From IMG/VR virus record IMGVR_UViG_2928503688_000006, positions 5,660 through 69,659 of that record: a DNA stretch of 64,000 bases. One strand, 5' to 3'. This DNA is from a virus. Taxonomy: Duplodnaviria; Caudoviricetes. Both the position numbers and the translations under genes were made by a program. Positions 2,284 to 43,045 of the stretch are shown piece by piece (the stretch's first letter is position 1; the number at the start of each line of letters is the position of its first letter). The notes beneath the pieces are model-generated. The model made no database searches, was not told the origin of the DNA, and saw only the letters and a program-made list of their open reading frames with translations.

Positions 2284-2780
2284 CGGATCTCCAAACGGGT
2301 TTTTTGCTCAAGGCGAGCGCCCGGCACTACCTCGCCATTCTTCAGCGCCTCCTTTAACTTCGTCTTGTCCAGCATCGGGGGAGGCGGTTCGGGCGTTTTC
2401 AGGAATGACGGCGGCACCTTGGTTTCGTCGTCAAGCACGAGCGATGCCGGATTTTTCCTGATCGACAGCACAAAGAACGGCGATTCGATCTTCTGAAGCT
2501 TGGCGTGTTCCATGTTGGCCCGCAGATAATCCTTGATGTGATCGGCCTTCTTGCGGATCGCCTTGGAGCGCTCTTCCATCGATTCGATCTGCGTTTCGAT
2601 TGCTGCCGCGCTCGCTTCCAGATTGCGCACGAACATCGCGACATTAATGGACTTCTCTTCAATGTCGCCGCTGATCGATTCCAGCGTGTCCTGAAACGTC
2701 TGCTCGTCCAACCCCATTTGCTCAAGTTGGTCGAGTTGCTGGCGGTAATCACCCGCGATAGCGAAAAGACTCAGACTCAT
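2280..2780 (-). CDS. Siphovirus Gp157 family protein
   Basis: Coiled coil, then [10 protein letters not shown] and [19 protein letters not shown]; start coupled to ssb stop. Confidence 0.85.
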
Positions 2781-3118
2781 GATTGCCGGCCTCCTAGCAT
2801 TTGCATCGCATCGGCGATGATTTCGGTTGAATACTTGTCCTGTCCATCGCTGCCCTGCCATTTGCGGGTTCGAATGCGGCCTTCAATATAGAGTGACGAG
2901 CCTTTCTTGACGTGCTCCGAGACGATCTCAGCCAACTTTCCAAAGAAAGCTACGCGATGCCATTCAGTGACTTCTTTCGGCTCGCCGGTTGTCTTGTCCT
3001 TGTATTTATCGGACGTAGCGAGGCGTAGATTGGTGATCGCGTCACCACTAGACGCATATCGCGTTTCGGGGTCGGCCCCGACATTGCCGACGAGAATTAC
3101 TTTGTTGACCGATGCCAT
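2777..3118 (-). CDS. ssb: Single-stranded DNA-binding protein (OB fold, no acidic tail)
   Basis: [43 protein letters not shown]. Confidence 0.95.
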
Positions 3119-3738
3119 TACGCCGCCTTCTTCAGTTCGCCCATACGCCGGTTGAAAGTTTCGTTCACCGCCGCCTTTTGTTCCTTGGTCAGACCGTTCA
3201 TGATCTTGACCAACTCCGGCACAGAATCAACGCTGTTCATCTGCTCGACAATTGCCATATCGACCGGATCTTCGGGGGCATCTGAACCTTTCTTTCCGCT
3301 TGGTCTCGCCGAGCCGCCCGGCTTATTCGATGCAGTCCGATCTCCGACGCCAGAGCCGGCGTTGCCATCGTCGTCGTCCTGATACAAGCCGGTGATGGCC
3401 GCAAGGGCATAGCGACGCCCATAGGTCATGGCGCTGCCGTATCCTTGTGGGTCTTGCTTGGGCAAGGGCATCACTAGCGTGTCCTCAAGCCATTCGCCGG
3501 ATTCATGCAGCAGACGAGTCGTCAAGTGCAACTTGCCGTCATCCGATGGACTAGGAGACTGAATGTATGAGATTCCCGCATCATTCAATGCCGGTTTGAT
3601 TGCATCAACGACAGCCGGCAAATCGGCATACTTATTCTTGAAGTGGGGATTCGTCGCGTCCTTCGACGCGAACTTTATTGCCTTCTGGGCCGCCAGAAAG
3701 GCTGGGGCAAATTTCGTCTGACTTTCGCTTGTTTTCAC
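3118..3738 (-). CDS. erf: ERF-family ssDNA annealing protein
   Basis: [11 protein letters not shown] and [15 protein letters not shown]...DDDG; GGAG RBS before GTG 3738. Confidence 0.9.
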
Positions 3739-3828: not shown

Positions 3829-5028
3829 TCATAACGGCGCTCCCACCAGTTCCTCGCCGACGCTCACCAGCTTATCGAACAGGAACGTTTGCAGTTCGCG
3901 TGTCATATCCTTCCACCCGTGGCGCAAATGGATGTATTCCTCGATCAGTGTCGAAGCCAGTTGCTTCGTGCCGCCCATATGGATGACGCGCTCGGCGATA
4001 AAAATCGTTTCGTCCTGCGCCAACCCCAAGCCGCCCTCACCCAAGCTTTCCACGAACTTGATCGGGTAAGCGCCGCGAATCTGGAAGCCGATCCGTTCGC
4101 AGAAGTCCAATGCGCGGTCAACGCTCATTTGCTGTACGCGCGTCAGGGCGATTTCTCGCGGGCTGAACTCCTTACTTGTTGCCTCCTTCCAGACCTTCAT
4201 AGCCGTCCGGTTGACCTTCAGCATCCGATCAGCCATGCAATCGCCCACGACCTTCAGGAATGTGGCGCTGGGCGGAATTCCCCAACCATGAAAATCCAGT
4301 CCACCTTCCAGCGTGTTATCGCTGGCCGTGATGACCTCGCGTAGCATCATTTCGTCACTGGCTTTCAACAGCCCGCGCGCGATTCGGTAGGCGGGTTCCC
4401 ACTGATTTTTTACCGTGCGGTCCTCGGTCAACTCAATATGTGAATTGTCGTTGTAGGTGTACAGACCCTCCTTGCTGAAGTCCTGCACGCGCACGCCACG
4501 GTAGTAGAACGTAGAGCCAGGTCGGCGGCGAATCTCGATGTCTCCGACTACACACGCTGGTTTGTCTTCCAGCAGATAGAAACTGGACTGCGAAAACACC
4601 GCGTCGAATTCCTCTCCCTTGACGATAATCCGCGTCGTGCCGGGTTCCGGCTCAGGCCACGTCATCATGCGTTCGGTATTGCCGCCTTCATCCTTGCAGT
4701 TGCAGGCAATCTCGCGGTAGGCCATCCACAATTCCCATTGCTTGCCTAGTTCGGTCGTAAAGCCGATTGGCTGAGGTGGCGCCATATCAACCGACATCTG
4801 CACGAAAATGAAGTTCTTACCGCGAACCAGTTCGTTCGCCACGCTGAATTCGATGCGCTGCGCGCCAGAGAAAATCGTTACTTCGTGGCCGGTTCGCAGC
4901 AGAACGGCAATGGCGTACTTCAGGCCGGTTCCGAAAAACCCGATTGGCGTATCACCTTCCTTGACGCTGACGCCGAAGGTCGAGATTGAAAGTACGTCAA
5001 TCTCGCCGGGATTTGAAAATACGATCAT
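3829..5028 (-). CDS. GHKL/HATPase_c-like ATPase with C-terminal EExxH segment
   Basis: IGFFGTGLKYAIA (GHKL G2-like box); LIEEYIHLRHG near C-terminus. Confidence 0.65.
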   Translation of the reverse strand: MIVFSNPGEIDVLSISTFGVSVKEGDTPIGFFGTGLKYAIAVLLRTGHEVTIFSGAQRIEFSVANELVRGKNFIFVQMSVDMAPPQPIGFTTELGKQWELWMAYREIACNCKDEGGNTERMMTWPEPEPGTTRIIVKGEEFDAVFSQSSFYLLEDKPACVVGDIEIRRRPGSTFYYRGVRVQDFSKEGLYTYNDNSHIELTEDRTVKNQWEPAYRIARGLLKASDEMMLREVITASDNTLEGGLDFHGWGIPPSATFLKVVGDCMADRMLKVNRTAMKVWKEATSKEFSPREIALTRVQQMSVDRALDFCERIGFQIRGAYPIKFVESLGEGGLGLAQDETIFIAERVIHMGGTKQLASTLIEEYIHLRHGWKDMTRELQTFLFDKLVSVGEELVGAPL

Positions 5029-5054
5029 CGTCGTTCCCCTTCTCTATTCGTGTG

Positions 5055-5261
5055 TTAGGTGGCGCTCTTGACGTCACCGCCCGTATCCAGTGATTCCAAA
5101 TTAATCGTTGCGCGTACCTTGACTGGCAACGTCAATTGGTCGCTGAAGACCGAGGAAAGCGCATCCATCACGGCGATCATGTCGTCAAAGTCAGGGTCGC
5201 TGTTTTTGATGAAGGCCTGCACGCGCTCCCCGAGAATCCGTTTGTTGGCTATAAGGCTCAC
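5055..5261 (-). CDS. Hypothetical protein
   Basis: 68-aa ORF coupled to upstream gene by overlap. Confidence 0.6.
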   Translation of the reverse strand: MSLIANKRILGERVQAFIKNSDPDFDDMIAVMDALSSVFSDQLTLPVKVRATINLESLDTGGDVKSAT

Positions 5262-5500
5262 GGTTCCATCCTCAAGTACTCGTTCGGATTTGTGACTTCC
5301 TGCACCATTTCCAGATATCGCTCTGCTTCTTGCCGGGCGCCGAAGTAACCAGAGTCACGCGAACCAGGTTCGATAAAACCGTCTTCGTCGGTGTGGAGTG
5401 TTCCGACATAGAAGCCGGCCGCCGATCGCAAGACCTGAAGTTCGGAATAACGATCCTTGTCAGGTACGCAGTCCAGATTCGTGACCATTGGCGATTTCAT
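5258..5500 (-). CDS. Conserved small phage protein
   Basis: 80 aa; LQVLRSAAGFYVGT...SRDSGYF; ATGA-coupled. Confidence 0.7.
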   Translation of the reverse strand: MKSPMVTNLDCVPDKDRYSELQVLRSAAGFYVGTLHTDEDGFIEPGSRDSGYFGARQEAERYLEMVQEVTNPNEYLRMEP

Positions 5501-5670
5501 CGCACACTCCCATAAGGCACCGCGCGACGCTGCACACGGTTAGCCGGGTGAAGCAGGTACTTTTCGCCCAGTGCCTCAATCGCCCGCGCGCGGCGTTCTT
5601 CGAGGGAATCCACGTACTCCGCATACTGTTTGAGCATCGCCTTGCGTTGTTCTTCGAATTCGTCACGCAT
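5497..5670 (-). CDS. Small phage protein, 57 aa (absent from ORF track)
   Basis: Manual translation MRDEFEEQ...KYLLHPANRVQR...; GAGGG RBS; stop overlaps next ATG. Confidence 0.7.
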   Translation of the reverse strand: MRDEFEEQRKAMLKQYAEYVDSLEERRARAIEALGEKYLLHPANRVQRRAVPYGSVR

Positions 5671-7544: not shown

Positions 7545-7596
7545 CTTGCTTGCTCCATATATGAGTCGCGAATGGCGTTCGTGACTGGTTTGCGCT

Positions 7597-8206: not shown

Positions 8207-8668
8207 TTAATTGTCGAACCAGAAAACGACTCGCTCTGTGCCGCGCGCTGCAAGCGCCTGCAATTCCTCGATGAACCAATCGCCAAGGAACTCGCACCAC
8301 GTTTGCGTAATGCCCTGCCCGGGTTCACAAGTTGCCGCACCGGTCCATGAGTTGGCGCTGGTTTGTTTGGTGTAGCGCCGGTCTTCCATCATGGCCGAAT
8401 AGTCGAACTCAATCAGTTCTTTCATCGTCAGCCATGATGGCGTGTGAGCATCGCATCCCCATGATTCGAATGAGCCCGCAACCTCAGCGCATGCAGTGGT
8501 CGGAAACCCGCGCGGCGGTGCAATCGGAGCGATTGCCGAGTAATTGCGAATGCCGGCCAGAAACGCGAAAACTCCGTAGGACCGGAAGTCAAAGATGTCG
8601 CACTTGACCAGAACCCACTTGCCTTCTTCATCCCGCCTTTCAGCGAATGCGTGTATGTCGCAGCCCAT
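8207..8668 (-). CDS. Conserved phage hypothetical (MGCDIH type)
   Basis: MGCDIH start, VFAFLAGIRN, HTPSWLT, RVVFWFDN end. Confidence 0.8.
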   Translation of the reverse strand: MGCDIHAFAERRDEEGKWVLVKCDIFDFRSYGVFAFLAGIRNYSAIAPIAPPRGFPTTACAEVAGSFESWGCDAHTPSWLTMKELIEFDYSAMMEDRRYTKQTSANSWTGAATCEPGQGITQTWCEFLGDWFIEELQALAARGTERVVFWFDN

Positions 8669-9416
8669 GTCCACTCCCGTAAGTCGTCCTAACAGCCACC
8701 AATATGGCGACGCGTTGTTTGATGTTCGGTAAGCCGCCTAGCGGGCGGCATCCCCTATCGCTATGCCCAAATGGGCCGAGTGGCATTCAGCAGTTAGGGA
8801 AGGTGGCAGTGTGCGACCTCCACCACTCACGGATGGCGCTCTCTCGAAGCGATTACGGAAGTACCGGAGTCATCCGCGCTAGCTAGGCGCAATCATTCTC
8901 TTTCGTCCCTGCATCCCCTCGCCTACACGGCCCTCCGCGTCCGGCTGACCCATTCGGTATCTGAGCTACACCTTCCCAAACTGCTGTTCAGCACTTCGTG
9001 AATGGCGCTGCATCTGGTTACGAACTCCAGATCCCTGGACCCCAGCTTCAAAGCACTTAAGCTCCACCGGGTCATCTTTGGCTCCAACGCCACGCTAGCG
9101 ATCCATGTTGGTCGCAAGCGTGCAGCGCCTTCTACGCCTACTGTGCGTGTCTCTCCACGCCGCACAACGCCATTCACGAAAAACTGCATCACACGCGGCA
9201 CTGGCAACACCCGACTTGTCGGCTCCAGCTACCGCGTGTTCTTCTGCCGCGCCGTCCAGCTACTTGCCAGGCGACTACCGCAGGCGCTCCGATTACTTCG
9301 CGATCGGTTGCTTTGTTCCGCGCCCCGAAGGGAATGGTTCGATGTTCTGTATCTCGTGTCCACCATGAGGACAACGCCCGGTTGCTCGCTTTCGCGTCCC
9401 GGATCAAAAACTTCGG

Positions 9417-9429
9417 TTGTTAAAGAGCG
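9417..9429 (-). promoter_or_regulatory. boxA antitermination site (CGCTCTTTAACAA) followed by a GAAA-loop hairpin
   Basis: Matches the GCTCTTTAACA boxA consensus on the leftward transcript; CGC-GAAA-GCG inside a CCGG stem about 10 nt downstream. Confidence 0.75.
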
Positions 9430-9550
9430 GTGGCACTACCGGACTGGCACTCTGGCAGGGTCCGTATTTTTCCGTGAGAACTGCTGGTCTCGTCAGAGCG
9501 GACCTAATCCGCTTACCGGCCGCGATCCTCTGCGGCCTCGGTTTCGACCT

Positions 9551-9754
9551 TTATGCTGCCTGTGCCGGGCAACCCTCGTTCAACCACTCCCAACAACCAT
9601 CGGCGTTAAACGAGCCAACAACCTTGCCATCCAGCAGAATGTCTTTCACCCATTGATGCCGATCCGATGGGCGATGCGTCATTCCGAGTTCGGCCAGGGT
9701 CGCGGTCAGCGAAAGCTCTTTCGCGAGCGCCTGCTTGATTCGGTCTGCATTCAT
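9551..9754 (-). CDS. Small early protein
   Basis: GAGGGG RBS before MNADRIKQ. Confidence 0.6.
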   Translation of the reverse strand: MNADRIKQALAKELSLTATLAELGMTHRPSDRHQWVKDILLDGKVVGSFNADGCWEWLNEGCPAQAA

Positions 9755-23688: not shown

Positions 23689-23776
23689 TCGAAAATCCCC
23701 GATTGACAACTCCAAACATTTGTAGTTGTGCTTATTTGTTGGTAGAATATCGAAGCTAAATCAAGCGGGGTTTGTG

Positions 23777-24277
23777 ATGATTCGAGAGAAGATTGCAAGT
23801 GATGTGCATTCGTCAAATCTCGCATGGAACGAGCGCGAGGAAAAGTCGATTGACCGCATTACTGCGCTTGGTATGTCCGATGCGCTCGGCTCTGCACTTT
23901 TGCGGTTCAAGTTCGCCAATGATCGGTCTGCTGGCAAGCGCGCCCTTCATCTTCTTGCCAACAAGGCGGCCCAGCGGCTTAGGGTCGAATTGACGTACGC
24001 ACAGAGACTGGCGACGGCATGCATCAAGGAATATCTCATTGATACATGCGACACCTGCCACGGAACCGGATACACGATGGAATCCGGTCACTCCACCAAG
24101 TGCAACAAATGCGGCGGAACAGGAGCCAAGCGCTACTCAGATTCAGAGCGCGCATTGGCTGCTGGGCTGCCGGTCGAGTCGTGGAGCAAGCACCAGAGGA
24201 AATTCGATGGCGTGATGACTTGCATGATGGCATCGGTAGCCGACACGACTGGGCATGCGCGGGAATTGCTATCGTGA
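23777..24277 (+). CDS. Q-like late antiterminator with CxxCxGxG zinc finger
   Basis: CDTCHGTG...CNKCGGTG; lies at the end of the early operon before the late promoter. Confidence 0.75.
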   Translation: MIREKIASDVHSSNLAWNEREEKSIDRITALGMSDALGSALLRFKFANDRSAGKRALHLLANKAAQRLRVELTYAQRLATACIKEYLIDTCDTCHGTGYTMESGHSTKCNKCGGTGAKRYSDSERALAAGLPVESWSKHQRKFDGVMTCMMASVADTTGHARELLS

Positions 24278-25062
24278 GTACGTGGTTCCTTGGTTTCTCC
24301 AGTCTTCAGGAATGGATGGATTTCGCCGACGGATTGCAGAAGAATTGCCGACGATGCACTGAATGCAATCGACAAAAAACCATTTCCCAATTTGCCACTG
24401 ATAGCGATACGTGCAAGTCATGCGAACGTCATCCCCATCTATTAGGGGCGCTGCCGAAGTTAAGGACTTGCAAAACTTGTCGCATCGAATTGCCGAATAG
24501 ATTCTTCGGGGGTAGACGCCACGATCAATACCCCGCATGCATGAAGTACACAACTTGCGTCTTCTGCGAAGCTAAGACGGAAGATATGCGGTGGACGGGA
24601 AAGCGGGACGAAAGAAATCAGTTTGAAGCCGAAGAGATGCGGCGCAAAGAAGAATTGTGGTGGGAGCAAAATGCAGACAAGGTAGCGCAATGGGCACACG
24701 AGTATTCGCTTGATGGCATGGTCGAGAGACTGGCTGAGGAAGGTCGCCGGCGCGAGGCCGCCCAGATTCGGGCGACGCCACCATGGGCCGATCCGAAGAA
24801 GATCGCGGCAATCTATGCGGAGGCTGCGCGGCTTACTGCCGAGACGGGCATCCCGCACCATGTCGATCATATCGTCCCACTTCAAGGCCCAGTAGCCACC
24901 TACGGGCCGTTTAAAGGCATGCGGATTGTGTTCGGGCTGCACTGGGAGGGAAATCTACAAGTGATTCCTGCCAGAGATAATGTTTGCAAGGGCAACCGCT
25001 GGTGGCCCGACATGCCAGAAGAAGTGCGGGCGACACGCAAAATATTGCGCATCGCAGCTTGA
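24274..25062 (+). CDS. HNH endonuclease with N-terminal Cys clusters
   Basis: HHVDHIVPLQG...GLHWEGNLQVIPARDNVCKGN; several CxxC pairs. Confidence 0.9.
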   Translation: MSTWFLGFSSLQEWMDFADGLQKNCRRCTECNRQKTISQFATDSDTCKSCERHPHLLGALPKLRTCKTCRIELPNRFFGGRRHDQYPACMKYTTCVFCEAKTEDMRWTGKRDERNQFEAEEMRRKEELWWEQNADKVAQWAHEYSLDGMVERLAEEGRRREAAQIRATPPWADPKKIAAIYAEAARLTAETGIPHHVDHIVPLQGPVATYGPFKGMRIVFGLHWEGNLQVIPARDNVCKGNRWWPDMPEEVRATRKILRIAA

Positions 25063-25086
25063 CAAGCACAACGGATGGTGTATTCT
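25059..25086 (+). promoter_or_regulatory. Late (pR'-like) promoter
   Basis: TTGACA-N16-TATTCT downstream of Q and HNH. Confidence 0.65.
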
Positions 25087-25193
25087 GCAAACTTAGTCGT
25101 CGTAGTGGTGTGGGCGAAACAGAGACCGCGCCAGACGATAGAGCGAAAGCTCCAGTTCAGCCTTCGATGGCAGAACTCACCCTGAAATTCCTT

Positions 25194-25228
25194 AAAAGCC
25201 CTGCCAGCCAACGCTGCCGGGGCTTTTT
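25194..25228 (+). terminator. tR'-like terminator
   Basis: AAAAGCCC...GGGCTTTTT about 110 nt after the promoter. Confidence 0.75.
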
Positions 25229-25241
25229 GCATTCTGCCGCC

Positions 25242-25424
25242 ATGCACTCTCACGCTCAAGAATCCTACCTCTACGGCGATCCCGCAAAGGTGCTTGAGGC
25301 CAAACAGGCACGTGAATCTCGCCAGAAGAAACGCATCATCGAAGGCGACGACTGCAATAACTGGAGCCCGGCGCGGAAAGCAGCTGAGGCGCTGTTCGAT
25401 ATTCCTGCTGGGCGGAAGCTGTAA
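25242..25424 (+). CDS. Small hypothetical protein
   Basis: MHSHAQESYLYGDPAKVLEAKQ; TAATG-coupled to next gene. Confidence 0.55.
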   Translation: MHSHAQESYLYGDPAKVLEAKQARESRQKKRIIEGDDCNNWSPARKAAEALFDIPAGRKL

Positions 25425-25636
25425 TGGGACTGATAGCCGCAGACGACATGAGCCAGCGCGAGCAGGCAATACTTTTCGAATTCACGCGCGATGTTGCTGA
25501 TGCGGCGTTTCGTGCGGGCTATCTGATGAAAGCATGGCAACCGAACGACGCGATGTGTCTGCGGTTGAGAGGCTATCACCAGGCTGGATTGTCGCCAGAT
25601 GAAGCCGCCGACGGGCTATTTGCCGTACATCACTGA
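25424..25636 (+). CDS. Small hypothetical protein
   Basis: 70 aa; LRGYHQAGLSPDEAADGLF. Confidence 0.65.
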   Translation: MGLIAADDMSQREQAILFEFTRDVADAAFRAGYLMKAWQPNDAMCLRLRGYHQAGLSPDEAADGLFAVHH

Positions 25637-25639
25637 TCC

Positions 25640-26370
25640 CTCGCTTCCCGCGCCAGCCGGTAGGCCCGGCAAGATGTTACACGGGCGCGGGAAGCACCTT
25701 GCAGTATGGCGATTCATGACTCAGCGCCCGGCAGATAGTCGGGAAGGCGGTAAGAGTCGCTATTCTGGAGGGCGCGGTATGCCGACCGTTGCAGACCTCG
25801 GACCTGAAATCCGGCGTTGGTCGCTCTCCCCTATTTCGTACCTGACCGGATACGCCGCCAGCCAAACCGGCTGATAAACCGGCGATTCGGGCGCGAGCGG
25901 GAACGAATGTCGCTATCCAGCTAAACCGGATGCGAAAACCGGCGGAAATGTCGCCGGACAGCTTAAGTCGATTAAGCACGCTAATCGCCTCAGTGGGTGA
26001 GGCGCTTCACTCAACCAATCCAGACTGCGGCCAGAGCCGATAAATGCGCCCGCGCGGCGAACGGGTTGGGATTGGTTCAGTGAGGGCCGCAGCAGATGAA
26101 AAACCAGTAGCGTACGCCCGCCCATACCTTCGCGAAGGTCAATCGGTGACTACGTCTTAAGCTCTGCTGCCACCCTCAACGAGGAAAGCTCCGGTACGCA
26201 ATCCGGCAAGCTGGTGAGAAGCCAGCGCCTTCATGAATGGCGATTGCCGCGAAAGCGGTGCAGGCACCATCGGTGGATGACCAGCCTCAAGAACAATCGC
26301 CAGCCATGAAGGCGAAACAAGCATCGCGCGCGTCGATAGACGGCCACTGCGCCATGCGGATGCGAGAAAG
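25640..26370 (+). ncRNA. Putative structured RNA array (family unknown)
   Basis: Head-to-tail stem-closed domains with no credible co-oriented ORF; see findings. Confidence 0.5.
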
Positions 26371-26396
26371 TAGTCTTCGACCTTACTGGATGTGCC

Positions 26397-26678
26397 ATGA
26401 CTGAACGCGACTTTTGTTTCTGGCTGCAAGGTTTCGTAGAGTTGACCCAAGGCCAAACTCCGAACCCTGCGCAATGGAAGTCGATTCAGGAGCATCTCGG
26501 CGAAGTCTTCAAGAAGGTAACGCCGCCGGTCGGTGAGACCAAGATCAAGGTCCATGTCGATACAAAGGACGCTCAGGAGTCGGTCGAAAGCCTGACAGAA
26601 GCCATGAAGAAGTATTTCGAGGCGCATAAGCAAGCAACATATCCGTTCGACTGGACGCGAACCACCCTCATCTGTTAA
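26397..26678 (+). CDS. Conserved phage hypothetical protein
   Basis: MTERDFCFWLQGFVEL...QWKSIQEHL..VFKKVTP. Confidence 0.75.
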   Translation: MTERDFCFWLQGFVELTQGQTPNPAQWKSIQEHLGEVFKKVTPPVGETKIKVHVDTKDAQESVESLTEAMKKYFEAHKQATYPFDWTRTTLIC

Positions 26679-26706
26679 TTCCCCTCGTTTCCTCCACGAG
26701 ATTTGA

Positions 26707-26730
26707 AGCCGCCCCGCGCGGCTCTTTTTT
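26707..26730 (+). terminator. Rho-independent terminator
   Basis: AGCCGC-loop-GCGGCT followed by a T run. Confidence 0.65.
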
Positions 26731-26744
26731 ATTCCGGTGCCCAG

Positions 26745-27131
26745 ATGGCTCGCAAACCGAAAGCGACTCCTGGGTACTTCGAGATTCCCGTTTTCCCGAT
26801 CCCGATCTTTGGCGGGAAACTCCTTCTGTGCGTGACGCGCGAGGAATGGTCAAGCGTCGCCTACCAGTACGACAGCGACCCTGACACGGACGGCTGCAAG
26901 GGCCTCTCTATCCAGTACCGCACGCCGGAAGAGGGAAGAGTTTATTGCATCGGCGTGTTCGACGGCGCGATTGATACGTTCGTGCATGAGTTAGCGCACG
27001 CCGTGTTTCATATCCTCGGCGACGTCGGCATTCCGGTAGAAGACGGTGCCGCGAATGAGGCATTTGCCTACATCCAAGGCCATTTGATGAAGGAATCATT
27101 TCCCTCATTTCTCGCGGCAATCGCCGAATAG
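26745..27131 (+). CDS. Small HExxH (zincin-like) protein
   Basis: FVHELAHAVFH...NEAFAY. Confidence 0.65.
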   Translation: MARKPKATPGYFEIPVFPIPIFGGKLLLCVTREEWSSVAYQYDSDPDTDGCKGLSIQYRTPEEGRVYCIGVFDGAIDTFVHELAHAVFHILGDVGIPVEDGAANEAFAYIQGHLMKESFPSFLAAIAE

Positions 27132-27195
27132 CGCCACTTTTCTGGCACAAATAACCGATTCTGGCGCGCAAATCTGGCGCGATAAGGGGCCTTCT

Positions 27196-28416
27196 GTGGA
27201 AACCAACGACTTGTTGAAAGCCGTGAAGGACCACGGAAGCGTCAATGCTGCGGCAAAGGCGCTTGGAATGGCCGAAAGCACGTTGCGCGGTCGATTGCGC
27301 GGCGCGGTTCCTCTCTCCGAGAATCAGCGGAAATACCGCGAGGACTGGACGGCTGAGGACTGCATTAACGAACTGCAGCGCATCGCCAAGATTGACGAGA
27401 CGAAAGTCATATCGCGCAACTACTTCCGCGTGCATTCGGATATCTCTGAATCCACGTGGAATCGTTTCTACGGAACTTTTACTGAGTTCAAACGGCAGGC
27501 TGGAATCACCCTTTCCCGCCATGCGCACGGTCTCGAGCGGGCAATCGCCAAGCATGCCAGCAAGGACGTGCAACGCCGGATGAACGTTGAGAAGTCGGGA
27601 TGGGAAGACGCCTATCTGCGCCCCAGCTCGAAGCGCTTCCAGACTGTTCTGGTGGCGTCCGACATTCACGACATTGAGTGCGATCCATTCTGGCGCCGCT
27701 GTTTCATCGACACAGCCAAACGCGTACAGCCGGAGAAGGTAGTTATTAACGGCGACGCCCTGGATTTGCCCGAGTTCGGAAAATACGGCGTTGATCCGCG
27801 CGAGTGGGACGTGATTGGCCGCATCAAGTGGCTGCACGCCTTCCTGGATGATATTCGCGTGTCGTGCCCCGAGACGGAAATCGTCTACATCGAGGGCAAC
27901 CACGAAGCGCGCCTGATCCGCCACCTTGGCGAGGCAACGCCCGCGCTTAAGGTTGTGCTGTCCGACCTGCACGGCTTCACGGTGCCCAAACTGCTGGGCC
28001 TCGACGCCTACCAGGTGAACTACATCGCCCGGATGGATCTCGCCGCATTCAGCGAGCGGGACATGAAGCAGGAACTGGCGAAGAATTACCACGTCATGTA
28101 CGACTGTCTGATGGCGCATCACTTCCCGGAAGGGCGGAATATGGGTGTGCCAGGCTTCAATGGGCACCATCACAAGCACATCGTATGGCCGTTCTATTCG
28201 CCGCAGTTCGGCTCGAGCGAATGGCACCAGCTAGGATGCGGACACGCCCGCGCGGCGACGTACTGTGCCGGCGAGAAATGGGCGCTAGGCTTCATGCTGT
28301 GCCACGTCGATACGCAGAAGAAGCATACGCAATTCGAATACGTTGAGTTGCGAGATCACGCGATGATCGGCGGTCGGTTCTACGAGCGAAACCAATCGGA
28401 ATTGATGGGTGTCTGA
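27196..28416 (+). CDS. HTH plus calcineurin-like metallophosphoesterase
   Basis: SDIHD, NGDALD, GNHE, GHHH; N-terminal AAAKALGMAESTLRGRL HTH. Confidence 0.85.
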   Translation: METNDLLKAVKDHGSVNAAAKALGMAESTLRGRLRGAVPLSENQRKYREDWTAEDCINELQRIAKIDETKVISRNYFRVHSDISESTWNRFYGTFTEFKRQAGITLSRHAHGLERAIAKHASKDVQRRMNVEKSGWEDAYLRPSSKRFQTVLVASDIHDIECDPFWRRCFIDTAKRVQPEKVVINGDALDLPEFGKYGVDPREWDVIGRIKWLHAFLDDIRVSCPETEIVYIEGNHEARLIRHLGEATPALKVVLSDLHGFTVPKLLGLDAYQVNYIARMDLAAFSERDMKQELAKNYHVMYDCLMAHHFPEGRNMGVPGFNGHHHKHIVWPFYSPQFGSSEWHQLGCGHARAATYCAGEKWALGFMLCHVDTQKKHTQFEYVELRDHAMIGGRFYERNQSELMGV

Positions 28417-42951: not shown

Positions 42952-43045
42952 TGTAGTGCTCTGCTGCGGCTAGGGACGCGACCCGAAACGCCGGCACCTT
43001 ACCGGCTGCCGCAGCACCTTCCTTAAGGGTCAAAAAAGGATTGAC

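Follow-up and report, generated by a model that had tools for sequence, protein, structure and literature searches.

A 760-nt non-coding gap in a phage genome is the template for a chain of structured RNA modules linked to phage tRNA genes

Lambdoid phages carry tRNA clusters behind the Q antiterminator gene, as with ileZ-argN-argO of the Stx phage 933W, and phage tRNA clusters are usually seen as a codon supply or as a reserve of tRNAs against anticodon nucleases. The T4 tRNA cluster ends with the stable RNAs species 1 and 2 (RNAC and RNAD), which are co-transcribed with it and whose release is attributed to its processing enzymes. The mascRNA of MALAT1 is a tRNA-like processing signal, and the C4 RNAs of phages P1 and P7 are processed by RNase P. 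Plant mitochondrial t-elements are also tRNA-like processing signals (PMC1920247), and RNase E can generate CCA ends by taking off a downstream hairpin in a single step (PMC5291269). Theta ribozymes, which are minimal HDV-like ribozymes, adjoin gut-phage tRNAs, and only 4.5% of the theta-associated tRNAs encode CCA (PMC10879173). GOLLD and ROOL are large structured phage RNAs often found beside tRNAs (PMC5737381; bioRxiv 10.1101/2024.12.08.627333).

Here we analysed a gap of 760 nt (25636-26396) in a 64,000-nt stretch of the Caudoviricetes record IMGVR_UViG_2928503688_000006, hereafter the window. The gap occupies the same genome slot, in the same orientation, as the 933W-type clusters, but neither ARAGORN nor the Rfam tRNA model finds a tRNA in the window, and the modules encoded there lack anticodon arms and carry conserved non-tRNA structures. 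An initial annotation had read the gap as six tiled stems at the front of a late transcript, lying after Q, where lambdoid phages often carry tRNAs. This placement agrees with the surrounding sequence, where a weak Q-like match (ORF 23726-24277, phrog_127, E 3e-5), a promoter-like site and, after it, a conserved terminator hairpin may represent a lambda-type late leader, and the analogy is apt since real tRNAs (Trp; Ser, Ser; Asn-Gln-Trp; an array of 8) occupy the slot in syntenic relatives. The slot, which follows the Q-like region and two small ORFs and precedes the packaging genes, is syntenic in relatives, with downstream genes varying by locus. The features flanking the RNA are:

25059..25086, + strand: promoter-like site TTGACA-16-TATTCT, directly 3' of a 338-aa ORF; consensus match only (scan, 10/12 positions)
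25194..25233, + strand: terminator-type hairpin followed by UUUUUG (tR'-like), ~100 nt past the promoter-like site; fold -21.3 kcal/mol, z -2.7
25242..25636, + strand: two small ORFs, ~60 and ~70 aa, lying past the terminator hairpin and ahead of the RNA region, with coding periodicity
26397..26678, + strand: 93-aa ORF (phrog_28500), outside the RNA, between it and the terminator
26707..26733, + strand: intrinsic terminator closing the unit, found by scan; kept in loci L010 and L012, there directly 3' of the RNA

On its sequence the promoter-like site is a candidate late (pR'-like) promoter. The terminator hairpin region (25185-25282) is 82% identical in loci L062, L063 and L065, and tblastn found homologues at syntenic loci for residues 68-143 of ORF 24984-25424 and for the entire 70-aa ORF. 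The 93-aa ORF is missing from L010, L012, L017, L022 and L067. A link to the downstream metallophosphoesterase gene was rejected as inconsistent, since besides the window just L010 has this gene and L013 part of it.

The 760-nt region folds at -319.9 kcal/mol compared with -293.0 +/- 6.9 kcal/mol for 20 shuffles (z -3.9; reverse strand, z -2.6). Coding periodicity is absent from the gap, where the spread of GC across codon positions is 0.02-0.20 vs 0.25-0.42 in the flanking genes. G-U pairs indicate that the RNA is read from the + strand, as the other strand would give C-A mismatches. The gap is thus a non-coding, + strand template for a chain of structured RNA modules, as the initial annotation had supposed. 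All six of its stems were located in the sequence and recovered in the minimum-energy fold, and the covariation across related prophages that it had proposed as a check is seen in stems 3, 5 and 6, which are kept in relatives with compensatory changes; stem 4 extends, in the window alone, a family-conserved helix, GAGGG/CCCUC. From 5' to 3' the chain consists of:

25643..25698, + strand: first domain of the 5' part, a perfect 12-bp helix (stem 1, 25643-25654/25684-25695) with apex sub-hairpin GCCGG/CCGGC, then ACC; z -3.6
25699..25766, + strand: hairpin domain closed by UAUGGCGAUUC/GAGUCGCUAU, from the whole-region fold
25767..25829, + strand: second domain of the 5' part, closing helix GGAGGGCG/CGCUCUCC (stem 2, 25767-25774/25822-25829), identical in L067
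25830..25985, + strand: further small hairpins, predicted only, including CCGGCG-GAAAUGU-CGCCGG
25986..26004, + strand: hairpin CGCCUCA-GUGGG-UGAGGCG just 5' of module A, read from the sequence; identical in L067
26005..26085, + strand: module A, a long hairpin (stem 3, 26005-26021/26069-26085) with the family's conserved base CUUCACU.../...AGUGAGG
26082..26180, + strand: tRNA-like domain 1, GAGGG (26082-26086) with CCCUC (26173-26177), extended by GCAGCAGA/UCUGCUGC (stem 4, 26089-26096/26163-26170), then AAC; z -3.2
26181..26226, + strand: core motif, GAGGAAAGCU, hairpin 1 (CCGG-UACGCAAU-CCGG), CAA, hairpin 2 (GCUGG-UGAGAAG-CCAGC)
26226..26314, + strand: module B, long hairpin CGCCUUCAUG-AA-UGGCGAUUG/CAAUCGCCA-GC-CAUGAAGGCG (stem 5, 26226-26246/26294-26314)
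26308..26382, + strand: tRNA-like domain 2 (the 3' module), closing helix GAAGGC/GUCUUC, stem GCAUC/GAUGC (stem 6, 26321-26325/26359-26363), hairpin GUC-GAUA-GAC, tail GACC

The 5' 370 nt are common only to one close relative, L067, which was found only through a structure-based pattern scan and is the sole comparator for this part; neither the 5' half nor the minus-strand gap at 8600-9600 matched any of the fetched loci by blastn. L067 is 89% identical to the window in the 5' half and 97% in tRNA-like domain 2, with other hairpins in the middle. Its stem-1 arms are identical and enclose a different apex hairpin, GCUGCG/CGCAGC. In the hairpin domain at 25699..25766 a G-U pair of the closing helix becomes G-C, with matched deletions on both sides of the inner helix, and at 25830..25985 (~95% identical) one C-to-U change turns a G-C pair into G-U. 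The stem 2 domain taken alone does not exceed its shuffled copies in stability (z -0.8). The hairpin at 25986..26004 is paired differently in the whole-region fold, which joins its GGGUG with CACCC at 26171-26175; at its position L012, L013, L007 and L006 have a hairpin GCCUC-ACGAAAC-GAGGC (CCGC/GCGG in L006).

The 400 nt at the 3' end fall into a modular RNA family of phages and prophages of Burkholderia, Paraburkholderia and Bordetella, whose structure and strand, covarying helices and tertiary pairs, and link to tRNA genes are seen directly in the homologous loci. Matches by blastn fall in gaps left unannotated in Ralstonia phage UAM5, Burkholderia phage CSP3 and Bordetella phage PHB04, in the last of these inside a 2.7-kb island that also holds three tRNAs and a permuted tmRNA. 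The base motif of module A (CCYUCAYR/YRUGARGG) recurs in L002, L004, L006, L010, L013, L022, L039 and L049, and in L013 the apex of this module is a tRNA without its anticodon arm (Rfam tRNA model, 29.7 bits). Module B has the same fold in 10 loci with compensated changes (e.g. CAGAAGG/CCUUCUG in L021) and is 83% identical to phage UAM5. For tRNA-like domain 2, 93.9% of cells are paired in an alignment of 10 loci (A3), 8 pairs are changed on both sides and the covariation score was reached by 0/500 shuffles. Modules are present without the core in L061 and L062, and the loci nearest by the 70-aa ORF (L060-L066) have no core, what they share being limited to the terminator hairpin, domain 2 or the distal terminator. 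As judged from sequence comparison, the modules are separable and are swapped in the manner of cassettes. Low-scoring pattern matches in other contexts (L011, L015, L023 and L031) and a CRISPR spacer (L016/L036) were set aside as not being RNA elements, and a scan of viral contigs with a second conserved pattern, GGCGATTGCC...GCAGGCACC, gave 0 matches.

The tRNA-like domains are bounded by acceptor-like helices, with a 7/7 complement found 65-156 nt upstream in most loci. Covarying types are GAGGGUG/CACCCUC, GAGAGUG/CACUCUC, GAAGGUG/CACCUUC, GAAUGCG/CGCGUUC and GAUGGCR/YGCCAUC, and the 7-bp helix homologous to that of tRNA-like domain 1 is among the helices that covary across loci. The window retains 5/7 of the family pairs in domain 1 plus an 8-bp extension, with the step U26081|G26082; a second upstream partner, GUGGGUG at 25993-25999, is possible. 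A 7-bp acceptor-like helix, G at +1 with U at -1, and a hairpin at the T-arm position, which are features of an RNase P-type signal, were all found in the family. The tails are AAC (26178-26180) and GACC (26379-26382) in the window, and in relatives ACCA (L006), GCCA (L012), ACCC and AAA also occur; most are AAC, AAA or ACC rather than CCA. An acceptor-like helix stacked on a hairpin, with the G+1/U-1 step as a putative signal, resembles the RNase P/RNase Z punctuation of t-elements, mascRNA and C4, whilst in the window family the tails are mostly not CCA and an upstream pairing competes. Specifically, GARGG, the 5' strand of the acceptor-like helices, has a second possible partner in CCYUC at the 5' base of the long hairpin before it, so that tRNA-like closure competes with another fold and may not form.

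The core consists of a single strand GWGGAARGCY, hairpin 1 of 4 bp with an 8-nt loop, and hairpin 2 of 5-6 bp with a 7-nt loop. Pattern scans and the covariance model R1 yielded 33 distinct homologues, including 14 copies found after the model was built (55.9-80.9 bits). The window has a single copy (26169-26232, 83.4 bits, E 7e-22), which was among the 19 sequences used to build R1, so that its own score is partly circular. The 5' single strand is nearly invariant across phages that otherwise share little, each of the five pairs in stem 2 has changed on both sides, and the covariation score was equalled by 0/500 shuffles. In L017, L028, L042, L043 and L050 the core starts at the base following the CCA of ARAGORN-called tRNAs, and in syntenic phages the tRNA concerned is the last real one of an array. 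Two tertiary pairs join the Y before hairpin 1 with loop-2 position 5 (column 22: U-A 18, C-G 14, U-G 1) and the last base of loop 1 with loop-2 position 3 (columns 34/51: G-C 24, U-G 3, U-A 2, other 4); in the window these are U26190-A26219 and U26202-A26217. The loop contacts covary in a manner that resembles the D-loop/T-loop elbow of tRNA, and five copies combine ...GG in loop 1 with UUCGAAG in loop 2 (compare G18-U55 and G19-C56 of tRNA), a similarity that is one of resemblance only. A closing helix for the core (GAGG with CUUC past hairpin 2) was rejected, as the A-to-U change at core position 2 has no compensating change in any copy.

The Rfam scan that the initial annotation had called for was run with Rfam 15 at three stringencies on the window, its sub-regions and 8 homologous loci, and it assigned no known family to any module; weak matches to CRISPR-DR10, MIR918 and isrG (E 5-7) were set aside as chance, and a literature search found no published description of the family. 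ARAGORN finds no canonical tRNA in the window, RF00005 none at E <= 10 in 25200-26800 or 26075-26396, and the Rfam tRNA model has no match on the core of L012. No tmRNA, including the permuted form, was detected in the window by ARAGORN or Rfam, methods that do catch this class since they detect the permuted tmRNA beside the PHB04 core. A bacterial Y RNA (YrlA) with Ro was excluded, there being no TROVE or RtcB protein in the 69.7-kb provirus and no Rfam match. RNase P RNA was likewise excluded: although GAGGAAAG in the core recalls a P4 strand, it has no P4-type partner, and Rfam gives no RNase P match. By description only, the family is like RNAC and RNAD of T4, being non-tRNA RNAs co-encoded with phage tRNAs; the host clade differs, and the window modules have their own conserved core and chain grammar.

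We favour the explanation, to which we would give an even chance, that the gap is a derivative of a tRNA cassette in the late leader and is processed into anticodon-less tRNA mimics. The chain would be transcribed together with the late genes from a slot that holds ordinary tRNA genes in relatives and, in the window, what may be tRNA-derived look-alikes, namely modules A and B, tRNA-like domains 1 and 2 and the 46-nt core, preceded by ~370 nt of lineage-specific hairpin domains. It is probably cut by host tRNA-processing enzymes, and maturation by these would give several stable RNAs of roughly 50-150 nt, with RNase P cutting the U|G step 5' of each acceptor-like helix and RNase E or exonucleases working at the NCC-like tails. 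The multi-product precursor of the initial annotation fits the separable modules, which are independent and reordered in other phages, and processing itself is at the level of inference; its RNase III cutting drew no specific support, the tRNA-like punctuation (acceptor-like helices, G+1/U-1, NCC-like tails) suggesting instead RNase P and tRNA 3'-end enzymes. Lacking anticodon arms, the products would be unable to decode and may act via tRNA shape, the likeliest partners being elbow- or acceptor-end-binding proteins, such as enzymes of tRNA processing or modification, or defence or toxin proteins directed at tRNA. By analogy, we propose a function as tRNA mimic or decoy.

An unlikely alternative is that the structures act in cis as a leader of the late transcript, serving terminator read-through, nuclease protection or translation control with no separate RNAs. 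The position between the promoter-like site with its terminator hairpin and the late genes suits this, purine-rich GAGG and pyrimidine-rich CCUC strands allow alternative pairings that could be switches, and in L019 and CSP3 the core lies shortly 5' of a ribosome-binding site. Against it, the same core ends tRNA arrays, sits alone after tRNAs or between them, and occurs in the RNA island of a lytic phage; downstream genes vary between loci; and a terminator stands directly 3' of the RNA in L010, L012, L017 and L022, so that the RNA there is its own unit.

That the region is one large RNA acting whole, a scaffold or multimeric particle like GOLLD or ROOL in which the junctions form a single tertiary core and the variable tips a periphery, we consider quite unlikely. 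The RNA is large, with conserved helix bases and variable apexes, and in PHB04 it lies near tRNAs and a tmRNA, as GOLLD and ROOL adjoin tRNAs (PMC5737381; bioRxiv 10.1101/2024.12.08.627333). Its parts are found alone or reordered, however, with the core after tRNAs, domain 2 without the core (L061 and L067) and module B preceding a domain-1-like unit in UAM5, and the entire middle is swapped in the nearest relative, L067; this is a chain of separable modules, not one fixed architecture. Models of GOLLD, ROOL, HEARO and other large Rfam RNAs gave no match at the gathering score, nor at E <= 10, in the window region and 8 homologous loci.

Two further readings centre on the core. In one, which is very unlikely, the core would give the upstream tRNA or tRNA-like domain its 3' end, as a ribozyme cleaving at its own 5' edge or by positioning a host endonuclease (RNase E or RNase P) after the CCA, and the rest of the chain is cargo. 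The core abuts CCA in at least five independent tRNA contexts, and the three preceding bases are otherwise unconstrained (CCA, AAC, AAA, GAC, GAA, GCC); the nearly invariant 5' segment and the compact fold with two tertiary pairs also speak for it, and precedents exist in theta ribozymes abutting phage tRNAs (PMC10879173) and in RNase E (PMC5291269). The likeness to theta ribozymes lies in a small conserved fold that starts at a phage tRNA 3' end after unconstrained upstream sequence; unlike theta, the tRNAs upstream of the core encode CCA, the hosts are Burkholderiales rather than Bacteroidota or Bacillota, and the HDV-like double pseudoknot cannot be drawn. An HDV-like fold is impossible because no strand 3' of hairpin 1 pairs with bases 1-7, the core alignments offering only CRR and no complement of GAGGAAR for an HDV-like P1, and no Rfam ribozyme family, HDV-like, hatchet, pistol and twister included, matched at E <= 10. 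More simply, the core may be a degenerate member that closes a densely packed tRNA array at a distance of two bases from its neighbour; in L050, an array of 8 tRNAs, the real tRNAs are 3-7 bases apart. In the other reading, itself quite doubtful, the core would be a new functional RNA class capping phage tRNA arrays, an elbow mimic that is self-cleaving or nuclease-recruiting and makes an exact CCA 3' end, and the surrounding chains would be anticodon-less mimics titrating tRNA-directed host factors.

It is highly improbable that the region is the functionless, decaying remains of a tRNA gene cluster. Such decay would suit the real tRNAs in the relatives' slot and the tRNA fragments spread through the family, including T-arm-like GGUUCGA hairpins and a D-arm plus T-arm remnant in L013, but it is the non-tRNA features that are best conserved, above all the core 5' strand; compensatory changes maintain stems and tertiary pairs, and the stem 1 apex hairpin of L067 was replaced by another hairpin, not lost. 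Unrecognised small protein genes are barely credible as occupants of the gap, since ORFs of 31-100 aa exist on both strands but GC by codon position carries no signal, the sole long co-oriented ORF (25599-25874, 91 aa) has a GC pattern wrong for coding and 0 Pfam and 0 PHROG matches, helices and not reading frames are kept in homologous loci, and G-U pairs with compensatory changes point to selection on RNA.

Under the favoured explanation of a tRNA-cassette derivative, the tRNA cassette slot of Burkholderiales phages also carries conserved RNAs with tRNA architecture (elbow-like contacts and acceptor-like helices) from which the anticodon has been lost, suggesting selection on tRNA shape, not decoding. 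The core was found in 3/151 sampled host genomes, a rarity that fits a phage-borne accessory RNA. With its defined sequence, two covarying tertiary contacts and fixed place at the tRNA CCA end, it is a compact and testable object; the covariance model can be used to annotate gaps that are blank in the GenBank records of CSP3, UAM5 and PHB04, and the core may bear both on how phage tRNA 3' ends are made and on the role of tRNA mimics during infection.

The RNA region (window 25637-26396, 760 nt, + strand) belongs to a 69.7-kb provirus record and is a gap in a run of + strand features, in which a Q-like ORF, a 338-aa ORF, a promoter-like site, a terminator-type hairpin and two small ORFs come before it, and a 93-aa ORF, a terminator, a phrog_1365 gene, a metallophosphoesterase and terminase genes come after it. 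This gene order, from the Q-like ORF to the terminase genes, makes plausible the proposal of the initial annotation that the gap stands at the front of the late transcript.

Features in and around the RNA region (window positions, strand)
Upstream of the 338-aa ORF, +: Q-like ORF (phrog_127, E 3e-5, weak)
Between the Q-like ORF and the promoter-like site, +: 338-aa ORF
25059-25086, +: promoter-like site, a consensus match only
25194-25233, +: predicted terminator-type hairpin with a U run, 82% identity in relatives
Between that hairpin and the gap, +: two small ORFs
25643-25654 / 25684-25695, +: stem 1, 12 perfect pairs
25767-25774 / 25822-25829, +: stem 2
26005-26021 / 26069-26085, +: stem 3
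26089-26096 / 26163-26170, +: stem 4
26226-26246 / 26294-26314, +: stem 5
26321-26325 / 26359-26363, +: stem 6
Between the gap and the terminator, +: 93-aa ORF
26707-26733, +: terminator, a consensus match

All six stems described in the initial annotation were located where it had placed them on reading 25000-27200, and each is also present in the MFE fold. The gap folds at -319.9 kcal/mol, compared with -293.0 +/- 6.9 kcal/mol in 20 dinucleotide-preserving shuffles (z -3.9), and its reverse complement gives z -2.6 in the same test. The earlier view that it holds no credible co-oriented ORF was borne out, since the codon-position GC signal of the flanking genes (spread 0.25-0.42) is absent from it (0.02-0.20) and its longest co-oriented ORF (91 aa) has no match in Pfam or PHROGs. 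The region is a non-coding, + strand member of a modular RNA family whose helices and tertiary contacts are backed by covariation, the structural evidence being computational throughout.

Among GenBank phages, blastn matched only 26169-26312 of the RNA region, and the matching sequences of Ralstonia phage UAM5, Burkholderia phage CSP3 and Bordetella phage PHB04 all lie in gaps that carry no annotation; the PHB04 match belongs to a 2.7-kb RNA island that also has three tRNAs and a permuted tmRNA. That unannotated PHB04 island holds over 1 kb of further GC-rich sequence (L003:1760-2240, 2575-3500) with no Rfam match and just one tiny annotated CDS. Pattern scans of viral contigs, species genomes and metagenomes added further copies, and a covariance model of the core (R1, with rough E-values) scores 33 distinct copies at 56-85 bits, one per locus, the single copy in the window being 26169-26232. 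By tblastn with the window's proteins, many copies share the same slot, with homologues of the Q-like ORF, the 338-aa ORF and the small ORFs before them and phrog_1365, phosphoesterase or terminase genes after them. Few host genomes carry the core (three of 151 sampled, family of Paraburkholderia elongata), a floor value as scoring was limited to 35 candidates in each genome. No description of this RNA family was found in the literature searched, which was incomplete, and its novelty is thus unproven.

The core (26181-26226) comprises a nearly invariant single strand, G-W-GGAARGC-Y, then hairpin 1 (CCGG, an 8-nt loop, CCGG), three bases, and hairpin 2 (5-6 pairs with the 7-nt loop U-K-C-R-R-A-G). 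Conservation of the first strand and hairpin 1 is partly circular, both having been fixed by the search pattern; hairpin 2 was unconstrained and all five of its five pairs change on both sides. Mutual information yielded two extra pairs that hold on the 33 sequences, one between the Y before hairpin 1 and loop-2 position 5 (U-A 18, C-G 14, U-G 1) and the other between the last base of loop 1 and loop-2 position 3 (G-C 24, U-G 3, U-A 2, other 4). None of 500 shuffles reached the core covariation score, and slid controls collapsed. Loci that are otherwise similar show a mixture of the U-A and C-G states (L013 vs L007, L014 vs L017), so these changes arose more than once. This loop-loop pattern has the index arrangement of G18-U55 and G19-C56 in the tRNA elbow, a resemblance only; five copies combine GG in loop 1 with a canonical UUCGAAG loop 2, and the core is not recognised by the Rfam tRNA model.

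A link to tRNAs comes from the seven loci listed here, where ARAGORN calls a tRNA with an encoded CCA and the core begins at the very next base.

tRNAs directly preceding the core
L017: tRNA-Trp ends at 7594, core starts at 7595
L028, L032, L048: tRNA-Ser, then core
L042: Asn, Gln, Trp, then core
L043: Ser, Ser, then core
L050: eight tRNAs, then core

A Trp-like tRNA and tRNA-Met flank the core of L014, L027 and L053, and the core of L055 and L058 is preceded by T-arm/acceptor/CCA ends not called by ARAGORN. Genuine tRNAs in core-bearing arrays are spaced by 3-7 bases. Most simply, the core would be read as the final, anticodon-less member of the array. The family is tRNA-derived in character and occupies a tRNA-cassette position. 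The tRNA-Trp(CCA) before the core (L017:7522-7594; homologues in L014, L042 and L058) may itself be a tRNA look-alike: it is called by ARAGORN in some loci only, the L017 copy is missed by the Rfam tRNA model, and this tRNA combines a short D arm, which puts the anticodon at position 30, with three acceptor-stem wobble pairs. The tRNA-like/core/tRNA-Met segment is identical in L014, L018, L027, L033 and L053, from assemblies of unrelated organisms (a 971-nt Desulfocarbo indianensis contig, a 655-nt Chromohalobacter contig at ~1x coverage and several metagenomes), which suggests one widespread or contaminating phage.

Beyond the core, tRNA-like domains alternate with long hairpins (module A, 26005-26085; module B, 26226-26314). 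In window-type loci the strand CACCCUC plus AAC precedes the core, with its perfect complement GAGGGUG 65-156 nt upstream, immediately 3' of the 3' arm of a long hairpin, and this pair covaries across loci.

Variants of the GAGGGUG/CACCCUC pair
L009/L022: GAGAGUG/CACUCUC
L039: GAAGGUG/CACCUUC
L006: GAAUGCG/CGCGUUC
L007: GGGGGUG/CAUCCUC
L024, L025: GAUGGCR/YGCCAUC
L021: GAGGGAG/CUCCCUC

The 5' strand of these acceptor-like (closing) helices begins with G and is immediately preceded by U; in several loci a 5-bp hairpin stands immediately 5' of the 3' strand, at the T-arm position, and in L039 this is a true UGGUUCAAAUCCA arm. The arrangement is repeated 3' of module B, where GAAGGY/RYCUUC pairing surrounds a 3' module (26308-26382) with the tails ACCA (L006), GCCA (L012), ACCC (L022) and GACC (window). 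Across ten loci 93.9% of cells in the 3' module are paired, with eight pairs changed on both sides and a score that none of the shuffles attains. Covariation across relatives, which the initial annotation had proposed as a check, is present in core pairs, acceptor-like strands and the 3' module. Modules A and B share the conserved base CCYUCAYR/YRUGARGG and have variable tips, that of module A in L013 being a D-arm plus T-arm tRNA remnant (29.7 bits, Rfam tRNA model). The GARGG strand could pair upstream, with the 5' base of the hairpin before it, or downstream, with the CCYUC strand; some compensation exists for both, with clearer cases for the downstream pairing (L006, L039), and the two options may represent a switch, an intermediate of folding or a by-product of recurring purine and pyrimidine strands.

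The 5' half (25637-26000) had no blastn match in any fetched locus, and its one comparator, the close relative L067, was recovered by a scan for the stem-1 arms. Identity of L067 to the window is 89% over 25634-26011, 97% over 26307-26382 and 96% over 26727-27200. Its stem-1 arms are identical, and the hairpin GCUGCG/CGCAGC stands in place of the apex GCCGG/CCGGC. In the domain that follows, an inner helix is deleted on both sides together and a G-U becomes G-C, and farther downstream a G-C pair has become G-U through a C-to-U change. Other hairpins occupy the middle of L067, where the window has module A, the tRNA-like domain 1 (26082-26180) and the first part of the core up to its midpoint; module B, domain 2 (the 3' module) and an arm resembling hairpin 2 are retained, and the 93-aa ORF is missing. 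Modules that follow the same grammar occur without the core in L061 and L062, and in UAM5 module B precedes a domain-1-like unit. The modules are therefore separable and exchangeable, and module swapping has occurred.

Several neighbouring features were also recorded. The metallophosphoesterase (27196-28416, 406 aa; phrog_20266, E 4.5e-146; N-terminus weakly HTH-like) also follows the RNA unit in L010 (93% identity), which is not so in most other family members. An int-alpA RNA (Rfam) match at 42963-43029 (+; 54.6 bits, above the gathering score) lies in the tail region between two + strand ORFs with no adjoining integrase, and L004 has a weaker copy. A second gene-free tract, of ~880 nt (8675-9550, minus strand), belongs to the leftward early unit. 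It contains a long hairpin with the base UUCGUGAAUGGCG/CGCCAUUCACGAA, similar to that of modules A and B, plus a core-like CUCCGGUAC stretch and a D-arm-like GUAGCUCAG; R1 found no core in it, and blastn no homologue among the fetched loci. In the syntenic relative L022 a GIY-YIG-type homing-endonuclease-like ORF (4689-5610, N-terminus GIYAITSASGKQYVGS) is inserted directly upstream of the RNA array. One pattern match, in Bordetella genomosp. 13 (L016 / L036:1081-1890), is a 32-nt spacer of a CRISPR array (repeat GGTTCCTCCGCATGCGCGGAGATAGACCC) that starts with the core motif GAGGAAGGCTCCGGTACGCAAGCCGGCG; a Bordetella host has thus acquired immunity against a phage via this RNA gene.

Rfam 15, a scan of which the initial annotation had suggested, gave no family at the gathering score or E <= 10 for the RNA region or eight homologous loci. 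The window encodes no tRNA or tmRNA, and the provirus no Ro/TROVE or RtcB gene. Theta ribozymes likewise adjoin phage tRNAs (PMC10879173), but their HDV-like fold cannot be drawn for the core, as nothing 3' of hairpin 1 pairs with bases 1-7.

Cleavage by RNase III, the initial candidate, may occur in the 17-22-bp stems of the region; no observation specifically favours it. The chances are about equal for and against the chain being diced by host tRNA-maturation enzymes: RNase P would cut the U|G step ahead of each acceptor-like helix (26081|26082 and 26307|26308) and 3' enzymes would act on the NCC-like tails, for which one-step RNase E maturation at CCA offers a precedent (PMC5291269). The products of such processing would be unable to decode; our guess, an improbable one as it stands, is that they would serve as tRNA-shaped ligands of elbow-binding or acceptor-binding proteins.
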